From: Cyclobacteriaceae bacterium
GTDB taxonomy: Bacteria; Bacteroidota; Bacteroidia; Cytophagales; Cyclobacteriaceae
NCBI GenBank assembly: GCA_026989505.1
Contig: JALSJF010000128.1
Span: forward strand, 2,437 to 66,436
DNA: 64,000 nt
Direction of reading: 5' to 3'
Of this stretch, positions 36,636 through 40,993 are shown in pieces. Position 1 is the first letter of the stretch, and every line of letters starts with the position of its first letter. The notes below the pieces were generated by a model that was not told the DNA's origin, did not search any database, and saw only the letters and a program-made list of their open reading frames with translations. Made by a program: the position numbers and the translations under genes.

Positions 36636-37541
36636 TTAGCGGGTGCTGATATAGTTGGCCAGGGCACCGGCCATTTTTTCGGCTGCTGCCGGGTACATTC
36701 GCAGCCAAAGCTCCGGTTCAATTAACTCAACCTCGCCCACGGCAGGGTTACCGTAATTATCTTCTATAATATCTACCCGCCCGTACACCGGCACCGGCTG
36801 GCAAGCGTGTATGGCCCTGGCGCCAAGGTCAATTTCGGCCGGGGTTGGCTGATAGGCATGTACTGTGCCGCCAAAGTCGTCCTGCACCCGAAAATCACCG
36901 GGTTTGGCAATTTTTAGCACGGCATGACTGTAATGGCCATTAAAATACATCAGGGCAATTTCGCCTTTTTCCGGCACCGACCGCTGAAAAACTTGTAACA
37001 TCATCGCCTCGTTGGCTATCAGGTGCCGGAAGATAGCTTCATGTCTGGCAATATCTTCTGCCCTAAGCCGGTAGGTGTGCCGGGCAGCCCCGGAGACAGC
37101 CGGTTTTAAAATTACCTCCTCCCAGCCCGATTGGGCCACCACGGCCGCCAGGGTGGTTGTTTCACCGGCTTCAATAAAAATAGTTTCGGGGATGTTTACC
37201 CCCCTGGCCTGTAGGTCCAGCAAATAATGCTTGTCAAGGTTCCAGCGGATAAGGGCATAGGGGTTAACAAACCGGGTTAACTCTTTGGTCTTTTCAAGCC
37301 AGGCAGAAAAGGCCGCGAAGCGGTCGAAATAGTCCCAGGTAGAGCGAAAAACCGCTACCCCGGCATCCTGCCAGTTAAACGTTTCATCGGCCCAGTCAAC
37401 CCGGATGGCCTGCAACCCTTTGGCCTGCAGGGCTGCGGTTAGCAATTTGTCTTCGTCCAGGATATTTTGGGTATATAAATCTACCTGCTGCGGGTTCACA
37501 TAGCGTGCATCGGTTAATAATACAATATCGTGTTTGGGCAT
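36636..37541 (-). CDS. ATP-grasp domain protein (RimK/glutathione-synthetase-like fold)
   Basis: The ATG at 37541 gives MPKHDIVLLTD, followed by ...NLDKHYLLDLQARGVNIPET...VILKPAVSGAARHTY...VQDDFGGTV... and EVELIEPEL. Confidence 0.7.
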   Translation of the reverse strand: MPKHDIVLLTDARYVNPQQVDLYTQNILDEDKLLTAALQAKGLQAIRVDWADETFNWQDAGVAVFRSTWDYFDRFAAFSAWLEKTKELTRFVNPYALIRWNLDKHYLLDLQARGVNIPETIFIEAGETTTLAAVVAQSGWEEVILKPAVSGAARHTYRLRAEDIARHEAIFRHLIANEAMMLQVFQRSVPEKGEIALMYFNGHYSHAVLKIAKPGDFRVQDDFGGTVHAYQPTPAEIDLGARAIHACQPVPVYGRVDIIEDNYGNPAVGEVELIEPELWLRMYPAAAEKMAGALANYISTR

Positions 37542-37702
37542 AGCCGGGACATTTGAAAAAGGCAAAAATAAGGCCGGCTACGCTATGGGTAATTTTATCT
37601 TGCATATTTTTTTGCAAGTCAGGGCAACCCTTTATGCTTTTATTTATTTCATCTGCAGCCGGGTTTCATGGCCGTAAAATTTTGCCTGAGAGCCAAATAG
37701 TT

Positions 37703-37710
37703 TAATTTTG
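37703..37710 (+). promoter_or_regulatory. Candidate -7 promoter box (TAATTTTG) upstream of the transaldolase-CBS gene
   Basis: It matches TAnnTTTG exactly and lies 55 nt upstream of the ATG at 37765. Confidence 0.3.
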
Positions 37711-37764: not shown

Positions 37765-38772
37765 ATGGAATTATACCTTGATTCAGCCGATCTGGAAGAG
37801 ATCAAAGAAGCGTTTAAATTAGGTTTTATCAAAGGCCTTACCACTACCCCTACGTTTATGCACCGGCATGGCGTAACGGATGTGGATGGCCTGATTGTTG
37901 AGCTGTCGAAGATTACCCCCATCCTGCAGATTGAGGCCCTGGGAAACACGGCAGAAGAGATACTGGCGGAAGCTGAGCGCCAACTGGCCCTGGGGCTGGA
38001 TAAAGACAAAACAGTGTTTAAAATCCCCGTATCGTTAGAGGGGGTACGGGCCTGCAAGATGTTGCGCGACAAAGGCTTGCTGGTGAATGTCCACCTGATT
38101 TACACCGTACAACAGGCTTACATGGCCCTCGAAGCCGGGGCTAATTATATCTGTCCGCTGGTAGGCCGCCTGCAAGACCAGGGCCATGATGCCCTTGACC
38201 TGGTGGATCAATGTGTGGAAGCCGTAGAGACCTTTGGCTACGATGCCAAAGTGATGTTTTCTTCGGTGCGCTACCCTGAGCATGTTCGTAATGCGCTGAA
38301 CCGGGGCGTACACGTATGCACCATCCCCTGGAAGGTGATGAAGATGCTGACCAGCAATAACCTCACCGAAGTGGGCATATCGCAGTTTGTAGAACACACC
38401 CGGCTGATGACCGTAAAGGTAAAGGATGTGCTTTCGGGCAAAAACCCGCTGGTTACCCTGGAGGATAAAATTGCCGATGCCCTGGTGAAAATGACCGAAT
38501 CGGGCTTTGGCTGCGTAGGGGTGGTTGATGCCAATGGCAAACTGGTAGGCACCTTTACCGATGGTGACTTGCGCAGGCTGGTTGAGGCGGAAGGCCATCA
38601 GGGGATTGACAAAAAAATGGGGGATTTAAGTTATAACCCGCCTATTACTATTGACGGGAATGCCCTGTTGCACCATGCCTCCCGGTTGCTGCATGAGAAA
38701 GGGGTGGATAACCTGATGGTGCTCAATGGTGATGAAGTGGTAGGCCAGTTGGATATCCAGGACGTACAATAA
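37765..38772 (+). CDS. Transaldolase/fructose-6-phosphate-aldolase family TIM barrel fused to a C-terminal KdsD-type CBS pair
   Basis: The N-terminus MELYLDSADLEEIKEAF...GLTTTPT...TVFKIPVSLEGVRACKML...VNVHLIYTVQQAYMALEAGANYICPLVGRL...VRYPEHV matches short (TalC/FSA-type) transaldolases, including the Schiff-base Lys context (FKIP). The C-terminal ~115 aa are two CBS motifs containing GTFTDGDLRRL, as in KpsF/GutQ/KdsD. Confidence 0.8.
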   Translation: MELYLDSADLEEIKEAFKLGFIKGLTTTPTFMHRHGVTDVDGLIVELSKITPILQIEALGNTAEEILAEAERQLALGLDKDKTVFKIPVSLEGVRACKMLRDKGLLVNVHLIYTVQQAYMALEAGANYICPLVGRLQDQGHDALDLVDQCVEAVETFGYDAKVMFSSVRYPEHVRNALNRGVHVCTIPWKVMKMLTSNNLTEVGISQFVEHTRLMTVKVKDVLSGKNPLVTLEDKIADALVKMTESGFGCVGVVDANGKLVGTFTDGDLRRLVEAEGHQGIDKKMGDLSYNPPITIDGNALLHHASRLLHEKGVDNLMVLNGDEVVGQLDIQDVQ

Positions 38773-38777
38773 CCCGT

Positions 38778-39497
38778 TTGTCTGGTTCTCCACAGGATAT
38801 CGAAAACTTATTTTCCGGCCCGGGGGCTATATTTAATGTCCCCGCCCCGGAAATAGCCCGGCAGGTGGCCGGGATAAAAGGCTTTATTTTTGATTGGGAC
38901 GGGGTGTTTAATGCGGGCGTAAAAGCAGACGACCAGGGCAGCCCCTTCTCCGAGATCGACAGCATGGGCATCAACATGTTGCGCTTCAGTTACTATTTAA
39001 AGTTTGGCTTCATTCCCCAGGTATTTATTGTTACCGGGGAGAACAACCAACCGGCTTTGCGGTTAAGCCAGCGGGAGCACTTTAACGGGGTGTACAGCAA
39101 AACGGGTAATAAACTATATGCCCTTAACCATATTACCGGGGCCTATGCCATAGCACCCGCCAGCATGGCCTTTATTTTTGATGATATCCTTGACCTGGGC
39201 CTGGCGGCCAAAGTGGCCTTGCGGTATTTTGTTAAGCAGCCGGCTGCCCCCATGTTGCAGCAATATATCCGTCAGCACCAACTGGCGGAATATTATACGG
39301 CCAACACCGGGGGGCATCATGCCGTCAGGGAGATATGCGAACTTACTATAGCCTTGCTGGGCAATTATGACCAGGTGGTGCAGGAACGGAACGCCCGGGC
39401 CTCGGCCTACCCATCTTACATAGAGGCCAGAAATAAAATTATTACCCGCTACCATACGCTCGAAAATGGCCGGATTACCGGGTTTACACCGCAGTAA
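38778..39497 (+). CDS. KdsC-like HAD-IIIA phosphatase (Kdo-8-phosphate phosphatase family-like)
   Basis: HAD motif I is GFIFDWDGVFN. It is followed by ...FIVTGENNQPALRLSQ...FNGVYSKTGNKLYALNHI...MAFIFDDILDLGLAAKVAL...TGGHHAVREICELTIALLG, which is colinear with KdsC. The start codon is TTG and its position is uncertain. Confidence 0.6.
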   Translation: MSGSPQDIENLFSGPGAIFNVPAPEIARQVAGIKGFIFDWDGVFNAGVKADDQGSPFSEIDSMGINMLRFSYYLKFGFIPQVFIVTGENNQPALRLSQREHFNGVYSKTGNKLYALNHITGAYAIAPASMAFIFDDILDLGLAAKVALRYFVKQPAAPMLQQYIRQHQLAEYYTANTGGHHAVREICELTIALLGNYDQVVQERNARASAYPSYIEARNKIITRYHTLENGRITGFTPQ

Positions 39498-39583
39498 GCA
39501 GTTCATATTTAAGCGGTTATAGTACCTTGATTTTTATCCGGTTTCATTCGGTAAAAAACTGGGGTATTCAACAATTTATTTAC

Positions 39584-39591
39584 TATTTTTG
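39584..39591 (+). promoter_or_regulatory. Candidate -7 promoter box (TATTTTTG) for the nqr operon
   Basis: It matches TAnnTTTG exactly and lies 35 nt upstream of the nqrA ATG at 39626. Confidence 0.35.
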
Positions 39592-39625
39592 CCCGACTTA
39601 CAGCTATTTAAAACCCATTGATAAA

Positions 39626-40993
39626 ATGTCAAAATCGGTGAAGCTTAAAAAAGGGTTTACCATCAACCTGGCCGGCAAGGCAAAACAACATCTTGCAGAA
39701 ATTTCCCAACCCGAAACATTTGCCGTAAAACCAACTGATTTTGTTGGCATGCAACGGCCAAAGGCCATGGTTAATGTTGGCGATAATGTCAAGGCCGGCA
39801 CACCGGTATTGTTTGACAAAAAGCAGGAAAATGTGTTTTATACCGCCCCGGTAAGTGGCGAAATTGTGGAGATTAAGCGGGGGGATAAACGTAAGTTGCT
39901 GGAAATTGTAATCTTAGCCGACAAGGAAATAGAGTACGAGGCTTTTCAAACCTATAATGTTTCTGACCTGGCCAAAGCCGGCAGGGAGGAACTGCAGGCG
40001 CAGATGCTGAAGTCCGGGGTGTGGCCGAATATCATTCAGCGCCCGTATGGCATTGTGGCCCGGCCGGAGGATACCCCGCGGGATATCTTTATCAGCGGTT
40101 TTGACTCCCACCCGCTGGCGCCCGATTACAATTTTATCTTTAAAGGGGAGGAAAAGAATTTTCAGGCAGGTATCGAAGTGCTTAAAAAGTTTACGCCCGG
40201 CACTATCCATGTAAATATAGCGGGTAAGGCCGAAGTGAACCCGGTGTACAGTGCTGCCGAAACCGTACAAATCAACAAGTTTTACGGCAAGCACCCGGCC
40301 GGCAATGTGGGCGTGCAGATCCACCACCTGGCCCCGATAAATAAAAACGACCTGGTGTGGACAATCAACCCTTATGGGGTTATTCAGCTTGGCCGGCTGT
40401 TCCTGGAGGGCAGATATGATGCCCGTAAGATTATTGCCCTGGCCGGCTCGGAGGTGAAAAACCCGCAGTATTACCAAACTTACAGCGGTGCCGGCATCAA
40501 ACGTTTTGTGCAGGACAACCTGGTTAACAATCACGTGCGCTATATCAGTGGCAATGTGCTTACCGGTGAAAATGTGGGGGAACAAGGGCACCTGGGGTAT
40601 TACGATCATCTGATTACGGTGATCCCGGAAGGGGACAAGCCGGAATTTTTCGGCTGGATTTTGCCCTCGTTTAAGAAGTTAAGTTTCTCGCGTGCCATTG
40701 GCCTGCTTTCCTTCCTTAACTCACCCAAAAAGGAATATGTAATTGACACCAATACCAAGGGTGAGCCCCGGGCCTTTGTGCAAACAGGCGTTTTTGAGCA
40801 GGTTACCCCGATGGATATCTACCCTACCCACCTGATCAAATCAATCCTGGCCGAGGATTTTGATGAGATGGAGGCGTTGGGGATTTATGAGGTGATAGAA
40901 GAAGATTTTGCCCTCTGTGAGTTTGTCGATGTTTCTAAACACAATATCCAGGCCATAGTGCGTGACGGACTTAATTTAATGCAGTATAGTTAA
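39626..40993 (+). CDS. nqrA: Na+-translocating NADH:quinone reductase subunit A
   Basis: The ATG at 39626 gives MSKSVKLKKGFTINLAGKA... It is the first gene of the colinear nqrABCDE set. Confidence 0.9.
   Translation: MSKSVKLKKGFTINLAGKAKQHLAEISQPETFAVKPTDFVGMQRPKAMVNVGDNVKAGTPVLFDKKQENVFYTAPVSGEIVEIKRGDKRKLLEIVILADKEIEYEAFQTYNVSDLAKAGREELQAQMLKSGVWPNIIQRPYGIVARPEDTPRDIFISGFDSHPLAPDYNFIFKGEEKNFQAGIEVLKKFTPGTIHVNIAGKAEVNPVYSAAETVQINKFYGKHPAGNVGVQIHHLAPINKNDLVWTINPYGVIQLGRLFLEGRYDARKIIALAGSEVKNPQYYQTYSGAGIKRFVQDNLVNNHVRYISGNVLTGENVGEQGHLGYYDHLITVIPEGDKPEFFGWILPSFKKLSFSRAIGLLSFLNSPKKEYVIDTNTKGEPRAFVQTGVFEQVTPMDIYPTHLIKSILAEDFDEMEALGIYEVIEEDFALCEFVDVSKHNIQAIVRDGLNLMQYS

Follow-up and report, generated by a model that had tools for sequence, protein, structure and literature searches.

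Introduction

To our knowledge, nearly all Gram-negative bacteria depend on Kdo as an essential sugar of their lipopolysaccharide (LPS), and the precursor of this sugar, D-arabinose-5-phosphate (A5P), is considered to be supplied universally by KdsD; aldolase chemistry yielding A5P is, as far as we know, in use so far only in synthetic glycolaldehyde-assimilation pathways. KdsD and its relatives KpsF and GutQ join a SIS domain to a C-terminal CBS pair, and kdsD and kdsC adjoin each other in E. coli. A second group of enzymes that concerns us here is the class-I (Schiff-base) barrels of the transaldolases (Tal) and the fructose-6-phosphate (F6P) aldolases (FSA). Asn28, Gln59, Thr109, Ala129 and Tyr131 are donor-pocket or catalytic-water residues of FSA/Tal (PMC13259622), and the exchange A129S in FSA moves the efficiency towards F6P/DHA (PMC7767278). 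As had been correctly stated in the original prediction for the locus described below, FSA-type enzymes can make A5P: FsaA and TalB-F178Y form it from glycolaldehyde and glyceraldehyde-3-phosphate (G3P) (PMC13550131).

Here we analyzed a gene, called TAL-CBS hereafter, that lies with a downstream HAD phosphatase gene in a stretch of 64,000 nt (the window). Public annotation gives the TAL-CBS family only the names "transaldolase family protein", "transaldolase" or "TalC/MipB F6P aldolase", and in our literature search we found no paper that describes a Tal-CBS protein or links Tal to kdsA or kdsD. Our results suggest an undescribed way to feed the essential Kdo pathway.

Results

Architecture of TAL-CBS

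TAL-CBS is a fusion of a short variant transaldolase/FSA barrel with a KpsF/KdsD-type CBS pair (Table 1). In the 335-aa protein, Pfam places TAL_FSA at residues 3–203 (6.6e-33, 114.7 bits against a cut-off of 27) and CBS in two stretches (1.7e-14), and a Pfam and NCBIfam profile search found no SIS domain in it. The original prediction, a Tal/FSA barrel standing in place of the SIS domain before a KdsD-type CBS pair and followed by a KdsC-like HAD gene, was thus borne out by Pfam, NCBIfam and PDB matches, as was its reading of a single unbroken 335-aa frame. The motifs that it quoted, MELYLDSADL, TVFKIPVSLEG, ICPLVGRL, GTFTDGDLRRL, DWDG and GGHHAVREICE, are each found in the two translations, while the spacer from the TAL-CBS stop to the TTG of the HAD gene is 5 nt (cccgt) and not 6 nt. 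A frameshift or an assembly join was considered as the origin of the fusion and rejected: the exact 335-aa protein was found on 4 independent contigs, Bacteroidota yielded 194 unique full-length orthologues, and the AF2 model (mean pLDDT 95.3) is confident at the junction, where residue blocks 190–230 score 91–95. The survey of the architecture that had been proposed also found it in about 16 further clusters (50% identity). Among plasmid records, the best coverage of the TAL-CBS protein was at most 63%, and the matches were ordinary fsa genes only.

Table 1 Features of the TAL-CBS/HAD locus, in positions of the window
Feature	Position	Strand	Basis
Candidate Bacteroidota-type −7 promoter box TAATTTTG	37703..37710	+	Fits TAnnTTTG; 55 nt 5' of the TAL-CBS ATG; read by eye
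TAL-CBS gene	37765..38772	+	ATG ORF, uninterrupted, 335 aa; Pfam TAL_FSA and CBS
Barrel domain, residues 1–212	37765..38400	+	Foldseek to 3r8r; conservation; NCBIfam fsa_talC_mipB 159 bits
CBS pair, residues ~219–334, with GTFTDGDLRR	38419..38766	+	TIGR00393 kpsF; KdsD NF008141; PDB 4o9k
KdsC-like HAD-IIIA phosphatase	38778..39497	+	TTG start, 239 aa; PDB matches all KdsC; motifs colinear

The best NCBIfam match of the CBS pair was the KpsF/GutQ model TIGR00393 (2.5e-16, model positions 153–267 of 268), and the KdsD model NF008141 matched at 2.3e-11, compared with 1.5e-8 for the next unrelated CBS family. In the PDB, the top match was the CBS pair of an arabinose-5-phosphate isomerase (4o9k, 1.1e-13), and 3k2v and 3fna matched too. 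The KdsD, KpsF and GutQ models align only with residues ~213–334 of TAL-CBS, and Tal and CBS are fused just where the KpsF model has its SIS/CBS boundary. Judging from these alignments, the CBS pair is of KpsF/KdsD type by origin. TAL-CBS therefore shares with KdsD, KpsF and GutQ a C-terminal CBS pair of the same subtype, joined at the same boundary, but it lacks their SIS domain, and the catalytic domains are non-homologous. The CBS pair would then be a part retained from KdsD, presumably the nucleotide-sensing, regulatory one.

The barrel and its active site

The barrel of the AF2 model closely matches the B. subtilis short transaldolase YwjH (3r8r; Foldseek TM 0.93, rmsd 1.4 Å over 210 columns, E 2e-22). 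Identity to the short, decameric-type transaldolases (YwjH, T. maritima 1vpx and T. acidophilum TacTal 3s0c) is 30–38%, and TAL-CBS has in common with them the barrel fold, the Schiff-base Lys, Asp6, Glu60, Asn108 and the phosphate site Arg135/Ser167/Arg169. By its own numbering, the Schiff-base and phosphate-site residues D6, E57, K86, N108, R135, S166/S167 and R169 are all kept; these, together with T28, Q55, H110, C130, P131 and L132, are at least 98% conserved among the 194 orthologues. About 85 of the 106 near-invariant positions of these orthologues fall in the barrel, which is better conserved than the CBS pair.

On the other hand, the family differs from the short transaldolases by an invariant signature that is absent from canonical Tal or FSA: Thr110→His, Ser130→Cys, Phe132→Leu and Ser58→Gln/His. 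At the positions that define the known families, Thr110 (FSA Thr109) and Ser130-Pro-Phe132 or Ala129-Pro-Tyr131, it has His110 and Cys130-Pro-Leu132 instead. It further differs from the short transaldolases by its added C-terminal CBS pair and by linkage to kdsA, not to pentose-phosphate genes. With FSA, TAL-CBS shares the barrel, the Lys/Asp6 chemistry and a residue other than Ser at position 129/130 (Ala in FSA, Cys in TAL-CBS), and the use of glycolaldehyde as donor, with A5P made from glycolaldehyde and G3P, is a property of FSA that the proposal below draws on. FSA differs in having Tyr131 where TAL-CBS has Leu, Gln59 where it has Glu and Leu107 where it has Asn108; His110 is new in TAL-CBS, and FSA has neither a CBS pair nor a known Kdo link.

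The H110/C130/L132 signature was found in 16 fused and ~26 unfused clusters of 50% identity, compared with 78 canonical T110 clusters, and T110→H is the one change that the cluster alignment shows throughout the variant-barrel family. Three substitutions had been named in the original prediction, and alignment to the B. subtilis, T. maritima and E. coli enzymes verified all of them: NVTL→NVHL, SPF-x-GR→CPL-x-GR and TTNP→TTTP. The last is not a hallmark of the family, since Asn28 is retained in many variant clusters and Thr is specific to the clade of the window's protein. The accompanying suggestion of altered chemistry fits, because the changed residues are invariant and correspond to donor-pocket and catalytic-water positions. 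From the conservation pattern, it appears that the active site is altered yet complete and is held by purifying selection.

One could ask whether TAL-CBS is simply a housekeeping pentose-phosphate transaldolase with a regulatory CBS pair, its kds neighbourhood (below) being incidental or inherited. Public annotation labels it a transaldolase or F6P aldolase, and its best PDB matches in both sequence and fold are short transaldolases, but normally invariant catalytic positions are changed (T110→H, S130→C, F132→L), and the protein scores 159.3 bits with TIGR00875 (fsa_talC_mipB) against an equivalog cut-off of 245.95; the other Tal/FSA models of NCBIfam likewise stay far under their cut-offs. 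Moreover, one locus (L058) has, 6 kb from TAL-CBS, a Tal that is canonical throughout, and the linkage to kdsA recurs in several Bacteroidota orders and in unrelated forms that lack the CBS pair. We regard this explanation as very unlikely.

Four fused clusters (P0125, P0126, P0136 and P0147) have lost K86, D6, N108/H110 and R135 while keeping GVFTDGDLRR, showing that the fusion as such is not always catalytic. This raises the idea of a sensor without catalysis, in which the barrel of TAL-CBS would bind a sugar phosphate and the CBS pair a nucleotide, so as to control KdsA or the HAD protein. However, the Lys-less clusters are separate paralogues that adjoin Peptidase_M61 and have no kds genes nearby, whereas in the window's clade the catalytic residues are all conserved to the extent given above, and conservation is stronger in the barrel than in the CBS pair. 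We consider such a pseudo-enzyme highly improbable, and the most improbable of the explanations weighed here.

Gene neighbourhoods

We analyzed TAL-CBS loci in 80 species-representative Bacteroidota genomes, within ±10 kb around the matches. kdsA lies immediately upstream of TAL-CBS in 51 of 73 species loci, the HAD gene immediately downstream in 64 of 77, and both are in place in 46 of 70; in 8 of 70, among them Runella and Owenweeksia, neither is adjacent. Ten loci have kdsB within 10 kb and 11 have kdnA together with kdnB, and at one locus (L013) an LpxL-type acyltransferase lies within the cluster. The identity of these neighbours was supported by PDB matches (KdsA to 4lu0, 3e-72; KdnA to 5k8b, 2.5e-134; KdnB to 5k8c, 1.3e-112). 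The link to Kdo, which the original prediction had drawn from sequence motifs, is now strongly supported by this neighbourhood, and a KdsC-type phosphatase next door and linkage to kdsA and kdsB are features in which TAL-CBS resembles KdsD. When metagenome loci were instead anchored on Bacteroidota-type KdsA, TAL-CBS lay directly downstream in 43 of 61; the kdsA loci without it have unrelated neighbours, e.g. DHFR, GPDH or CoA transferase. The synteny in Bacteroidota could largely represent one ancestral arrangement. The loci of three clusters (P0161, P0162 and P0143) are on short contigs or at contig ends.

Barrels of the same signature that lack the CBS pair also follow kdsA. In L095/L096 and in L179 their start codon overlaps the KdsA stop, indicating translational coupling, and the KdsA proteins of the CBS-less loci are Kdo8P synthases (2.3e-78 and 9.3e-74, compared with at most 1e-17 for DAHP synthases). 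These contigs are unrelated, and the Kdo link appears to belong to the barrel, independently of the CBS pair. A cytidylyltransferase in L095 was considered as KdsB and set aside, as its only match is a weak one to CMP-NeuAc synthetase (2.5e-8).

No SIS-domain gene was detected at E ≤ 1 when the window, the 80 species loci and 80 KdsA-anchored loci were searched by tblastn with the SIS domain of E. coli KdsD, implying that the kds cluster does not include SIS genes, for a search that covers ~0.4% of each genome, where chance alone predicts ~0.4 hits, and that has little power accordingly; a canonical SIS-type KdsD may be encoded elsewhere in these genomes. The KdsA-anchored loci were also inspected for displacement in situ, and none carries a SIS-type gene at the place of TAL-CBS. 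The window's own pair is flanked by a DcsG-like ATP-grasp gene and nqrA and does not adjoin kdsA; kdsA and kdsB are absent from the window, and the HAD gene is the sole adjacent gene of Kdo type.

The downstream HAD protein

The PDB matches of the HAD protein are exclusively KdsC (3n07, 2.8e-11; 2r8e, 7.5e-10), and it is colinear with KdsC, as the original prediction had held. Its D39xD41, T86-G87, K112, D135-D136-x-x-D139 and R184-E185 align with D32/D34, T76/G77, K102, D125/D126/D129 and R167/E168 of E. coli KdsC, and these residues of the HAD protein, as well as G178, are at least 95% conserved. It thus shares with KdsC, a HAD-IIIA enzyme of the cap-less tetramer type, the four HAD motifs, the GGxxAVRE tail motif and the position beside the gene in the KdsD slot. 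It differs in being ~50 aa longer, owing to N- and C-terminal extensions, in having N66 and E88 at the positions of R63 and R78 in the E. coli enzyme, and in scoring far under the curated KdsC thresholds (NF007019, 53.8 against 208; TIGR01670, 39.9 against 106.95). Pfam gave no match for this protein, and its JGI family is named "KDO 8-P phosphatase".

Proposed function of TAL-CBS

With this neighbourhood, TAL-CBS very probably functions in the Kdo/LPS sugar pathway. That it supplies A5P, whatever the chemistry, we consider somewhat probable, and that it does so specifically by aldol chemistry is a possibility that we put forward with reserve. Taken as a whole, our tentative reading is that TAL-CBS and the HAD protein make up a Kdo module, in which a retooled Schiff-base barrel in the slot of KdsD makes A5P, FSA-like aldol addition being the likeliest route. 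It is quite conceivable, although still slightly on the doubtful side, that much of Bacteroidota makes A5P without a SIS-type isomerase, via a class-I Tal/FSA barrel placed before the CBS pair of KdsD, and that elsewhere the barrel serves as a stand-alone partner of KdsA.

By this aldol proposal, the SIS domain would have been replaced by a retooled class-I Tal/FSA barrel that delivers A5P to KdsA. K86 would form an imine with a C2 donor, presumably glycolaldehyde, with D6 and E57 doing the acid/base work and the new H110 perhaps acting as a proton shuttle in the role of FSA Tyr131. The resulting enamine would add to G3P bound by R135/S167/R169, giving A5P, and the HAD protein would then act as the phosphatase of Kdo8P, the substrate that its gene context favours. 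Since D-fructose is D-arabino-hexulose, A5P is F6P minus C1; it may well fit the barrel in the same register as F6P, and the residues replaced in TAL-CBS (S130→C, S58→Q/H and N28→T) would be the usual holders of the donor's C1 hydroxymethyl. For free glycolaldehyde we know of no obvious physiological origin, nor do the TAL-CBS clusters repeatedly carry a gene that would produce it; both points weaken the aldol route in vivo.

It is here that another chemistry has to be weighed, in which the barrel has turned into a non-covalent ene-diol aldose-ketose isomerase that interconverts Ru5P and A5P. E57 would serve as the base, the new H110 would shuttle protons and K86 would contribute electrostatic catalysis, in a Glu/His/Lys arrangement like that of TIM or PGI. 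The whole kds synteny applies equally to such an isomerase. Its metabolic logic is simple, as Ru5P occurs everywhere and the clusters do not encode an additional enzyme to deliver a C2 donor. Such an isomerase would take over directly from the SIS domain before the same CBS pair, and T110→H, the universal hallmark, adds a residue type that ene-diol isomerases (TIM, PGI/SIS) employ. Nevertheless, the Tal/FSA family includes no known isomerase, a Schiff-base route would be expected to end in Amadori/Heyns adducts, and the aldol machinery K86, D6 and N108 is invariant and was lost jointly in the Lys-less paralogues, suggesting that Schiff-base aldol chemistry is still used. We judge the isomerase unlikely.

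Also unlikely, if a little less so, is that TAL-CBS is a specialised, CBS-regulated transaldolase or aldolase that works beside a canonical KdsD and is not the source of A5P. It would tune the supply of sugar phosphates for the LPS core, e.g. by keeping the pools of pentose phosphates and A5P in balance or by degrading excess A5P, or would form or consume another sugar phosphate, one linked to sugars of Kdo type. The conserved Schiff-base machinery and phosphate site are in line with this, the kds synteny marks the pathway and not which step, and the presence of kdnA/kdnB and of other sugar clusters (L095) points to varied ulosonic-acid contexts. However, TAL-CBS holds both the slot and the CBS pair of KdsD, and in clusters with kdsA, the KdsC-like gene and kdsB, A5P formation is the sole step that has no other candidate. 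The donor-pocket substitutions also speak against ordinary DHA transfer.

If TAL-CBS does supply A5P, a non-homologous protein would have replaced the first enzyme of the Kdo pathway, in a clean case of domain displacement in which the regulatory module was kept. An aldol reaction from G3P and a C2 unit would be new chemistry for the Kdo pathway, an ene-diol isomerase new chemistry for the Tal fold, and either way the much-engineered Tal/FSA scaffold would gain a new natural activity. Thousands of Bacteroidota genomes may harbour a second, non-homologous A5P supplier under the name "transaldolase family protein"; gaps that metabolic reconstructions seem to leave in the pathway would then be closed, and LPS capacity would be inferred differently from metagenome-assembled genomes.

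Expression of the pair

Scans for sigma-70 promoters and terminators around TAL-CBS gave scores no better than shuffles. The candidate box upstream of the gene (Table 1) fits TAnnTTTG, the −7 consensus of Bacteroidota promoters. The HAD gene is probably co-transcribed with TAL-CBS.

A gene joining a transaldolase-type barrel to the CBS pair of KdsD

TAL-CBS is a re-tooled Schiff-base barrel of the transaldolase/fructose-6-phosphate aldolase (Tal/FSA) type with its catalytic residues intact, joined at the SIS/CBS boundary to the CBS pair of KdsD, the SIS+CBS arabinose-5-phosphate (A5P) isomerase that opens the Kdo pathway. In the uninterrupted frame where the original prediction had seen them, Pfam matched both domains, TAL_FSA at 6.6e-33 (residues 3-203) and CBS, in two stretches, at 1.7e-14; all motifs quoted in that prediction were found in the translations, and its observation is confirmed. 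With NCBIfam, the barrel is closest to fsa/talC (159 bits, under the 245.95 cut-off), and the C-terminal third falls on the second half of the KpsF/GutQ model (positions 153-267/268, 2.5e-16), a match that beats every unrelated CBS family by eight orders of magnitude and bears out the proposed KdsD-type origin of the CBS pair. The closest PDB entries were short transaldolases for the barrel (3r8r, 4.9e-39) and CBS pairs of A5P isomerases for the tail (4o9k, 1.1e-13).

The fusion is not an assembly artefact: the identical protein is present on four independent contigs, and the AlphaFold2 model (mean pLDDT 95.3) has no weak segment at the domain junction. The predicted barrel overlays that of B. 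subtilis Tal (TM 0.93, rmsd 1.4 Å); among solved structures, none spanning both domains was found. All of the best 120 database matches have the TAL_FSA+CBS architecture (333-340 aa), and when the 50%-identity representatives were searched exhaustively, ~17 full-length fused clusters emerged, with identity down to 29%. Of the 8,000 candidates scored with a profile of the variant barrel, at least 7,990 matched at E <= 1e-10. In public databases its members go only by "transaldolase family protein", "transaldolase", "TalC/MipB" or "CBS domain-containing protein" (e.g. Runella limosa WP_028522054.1, Salibacter halophilus), and no description of the family was found in the searchable literature. 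It is an uncharacterised Tal/FSA variant, new in architecture and pathway association and concealed by generic names.

Coordinates of the gene pair, its neighbours and related loci (L-numbers, loci of relatives)
Feature	Locus	Positions	Strand	Remarks
TAL-CBS	window	37765..38772	+	ATG start, 335 aa
HAD	window	38778..39497	+	TTG start, 239 aa
ATP-grasp gene	window	36636-37565	-	divergent, upstream of TAL-CBS
nqrA, mechanical ORF	window	39527-40993		TTG start at 39527
kdnA/kdnB	L004/L016	6890-9164
kdnA/kdnB	L007	461-2738
kdnA/kdnB	L013	4581-6915
kdnA/kdnB	L034, L035, L037, L041, L044, L045, L050, L055, L086, many of L099-L178
lpxL-like	L013	7889-8752
CBS-less barrel + kdsA	L095	6220-9315		translational coupling
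CBS-less barrel + kdsA	L096	793-2919		translational coupling
CBS-less barrel + kdsA	L179	514-2012		translational coupling
Lys-less TAL-CBS paralogue	L008	1434-2438		P0125, P0126 (with L009, L010)
Lys-less TAL-CBS paralogue	L009	123-1127
Lys-less TAL-CBS paralogue	L010	2862-3872
Canonical short transaldolase	L058	17312-17941		216 aa, 51% identical to B. subtilis Tal

The downstream HAD gene

Every PDB match of the HAD protein is KdsC, as predicted, while the gap to TAL-CBS is five nucleotides rather than six; no Pfam domain matched. Its family (1,706 matches) is named "KDO 8-P phosphatase" by JGI and "phosphatase" by NCBI. D39/D41, T86-G87, K112, D135/D136/D139 and R184-E185 are kept, corresponding to D32/D34, T76/G77, K102, D125/D126/D129 and R167/E168 of E. 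coli KdsC. The protein exceeds KdsC in length by about 50 residues (~25 additional N-terminal and ~40 additional C-terminal residues), scores far under the curated KdsC cut-offs, and belongs to a family in which N66 invariably stands for R63 of E. coli KdsC and E88 mostly for R78. A divergent KdsC-type phosphatase describes it best; its substrate range may differ from that of classical KdsC, and the gene context points to Kdo8P as the substrate.

TAL-CBS occupies the KdsD slot of Kdo gene clusters

Among 80 species-representative genomes with close TAL-CBS relatives (Cyclobacteriaceae, other Cytophagales, Chitinophagaceae, Saprospiraceae, Flavobacteriales such as Owenweeksia, Bacteroidales, Marinilabiliales and one Ignavibacteriaceae MAG), kdsA lies directly upstream of TAL-CBS in 51/73 loci and HAD directly downstream in 64/77, which makes the predicted Kdo link strong. 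Both partners flank the gene in 46/70 loci, and eight species loci have neither. The window itself carries HAD as the sole Kdo-type neighbour. Within 10 kb, kdsB was found at 10 loci and kdnA + kdnB at 11. The neighbours are unambiguous (KdsA 4lu0 3e-72, KdnA 5k8b 2.5e-134, KdnB 5k8c 1.3e-112). Conversely, when metagenomic loci were anchored on Bacteroidota-type KdsA, TAL-CBS followed kdsA in 43 of the 61 with room downstream, and unrelated genes did so in seventeen. TAL-CBS holds the KdsD slot in kdsA/KdsC-like/kdsB clusters. No SIS-domain gene was found within ±10 kb at any species or KdsA-anchored locus, even at E ≤ 1; this concerns the loci only, and that TAL-CBS works alongside a KdsD coexisting in the same cell is a minority possibility.

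Barrels that lack the CBS pair but bear the H110/C130/L132 signature also follow kdsA, with overlapping stop and start codons, at L095/L096 and at L179 (a TARA contig), again with no SIS gene. The synthases before them are KdsA-type Kdo8P synthases (2.3e-78, the Aquifex enzyme closest, and 9.3e-74), so the functional partnership belongs to the variant barrel and reaches past the Bacteroidota fusion. The Bacteroidota synteny may be mostly one ancestral arrangement; its retention across orders at 54-83% protein identity, together with this recurrence, favours selection. At L095/L096 the pair belongs to a sugar cluster with a CTP_transf_3 cytidylyltransferase, which in L095 resembles NeuA only weakly and is accompanied by genes for a radical SAM enzyme, epimerases, a GHMP kinase and a DegT aminotransferase.

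KdnA and KdnB together turn Kdo into 8-amino-Kdo (Kdo8N). Close orthologues of the Shewanella pair lie directly upstream of kdsA at many Bacteroidota loci, implying that these bacteria may make Kdo8N too, which a review restricts to the genus Shewanella (PMC4402001). At L013 the order is kdnA-kdnB-kdsA-lpxL-like-TALCBS-HAD-nqrA, the fourth gene encoding an LpxL-type lipid A biosynthesis acyltransferase (Lip_A_acyltrans, 2.1e-31).

The barrel is complete and systematically altered

We aligned the barrel with E. coli FsaA and with the Tal enzymes of B. subtilis and T. maritima, and counted conservation over 194 unique orthologues (54-100% identity). D6, E57, K86 (the Schiff-base Lys), N108, R135, S166/S167 and R169 are retained at ≥98%, and ~85 of the 106 near-invariant positions lie inside the barrel. 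Of the substitutions originally predicted, Thr110→His, Ser130→Cys and Phe132→Leu are fixed, whereas Asn28→Thr is limited to the query's clade; Ser58→Gln is also fixed, most other clusters having His there. Among representatives with an intact core, H110/C130/L132 are carried by 16 fused and ~26 unfused clusters, part of the latter being fragments, and canonical T110 by 78. In FSA, Asn28 and Ala129 shape the donor pocket, and the catalytic water is bound by Gln59, Thr109 and the proton shuttle Tyr131 (PMC13259622); the replaced positions are thus those deciding donor choice and proton handling. FSA donors include glycolaldehyde and hydroxyacetone, and A129S raises F6P efficiency about 20-fold (PMC7767278). 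Judged from the alignment, the active site is complete yet systematically altered.

Four fused clusters (P0125, P0126, P0136, P0147) have lost K86, D6, N108/H110 and R135 while keeping GVFTDGDLRR; they lie directly 3' of a Peptidase_M61 gene, and the vicinity holds no kds genes. These clusters are probably non-catalytic paralogues or pseudo-enzymes, and the architecture by itself is therefore no guarantee of activity; for the query's clade, with its retained core, a purely regulatory role is nevertheless very improbable. A plain transaldolase is hardly more plausible there: on L058, a Flavobacteriales MAG contig, a Tal with all canonical residues (TTNP, S-A-E, K, N-C-T-L, S-P-F-I-G-R, S-I-R) lies 6 kb from TAL-CBS, which is thus not simply the housekeeping enzyme.

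Proposed reaction

We infer that TAL-CBS supplies A5P; both the reaction type and a displacement of KdsD are putative, and the original interpretation is in this respect only partly supported. Since D-fructose is D-arabino-hexulose, A5P is F6P without C1, with the same stereo-triad and carbonyl-phosphate distance, so that a Tal/FSA barrel can bind it in register. K86 would then be placed at C1, and the residues usually gripping the C1 hydroxymethyl would be the replaced ones. FsaA and TalB-F178Y catalyse the formation of Ara5P from glycolaldehyde and glyceraldehyde-3-phosphate (PMC13550131). Given this fit, the replaced pocket and the precedent, we rank first, tentatively and at less than even likelihood, an FSA-like aldol reaction in which H110 would replace Tyr131 as the proton shuttle, although a glycolaldehyde source is missing. 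An ene-diol Ru5P ⇌ A5P isomerase acting through E57/H110/K86 would be metabolically simpler, but it lacks precedent in the Tal/FSA fold and leaves the invariance of the full aldol machinery unexplained, and we consider it unlikely.

Other genes of the window

HAD is followed by nqrA-E. On identical contigs, gene callers start nqrA at the ATG corresponding to window position 39626 (455 aa), leaving 128 nt behind HAD. The upstream ATP-grasp protein is nearest to the D-cycloserine synthetase DcsG (NF058666, 7.7e-53), at 179 bits far under the cut-off of 360; its gene is limited to the window's closest relatives, where kdsA adjacency is gone. The remainder consists of common housekeeping genes of the chromosome (purD, recQ, FBPase, pyrH, frr, folP, cdaA, guaA, mnmA, aroK).
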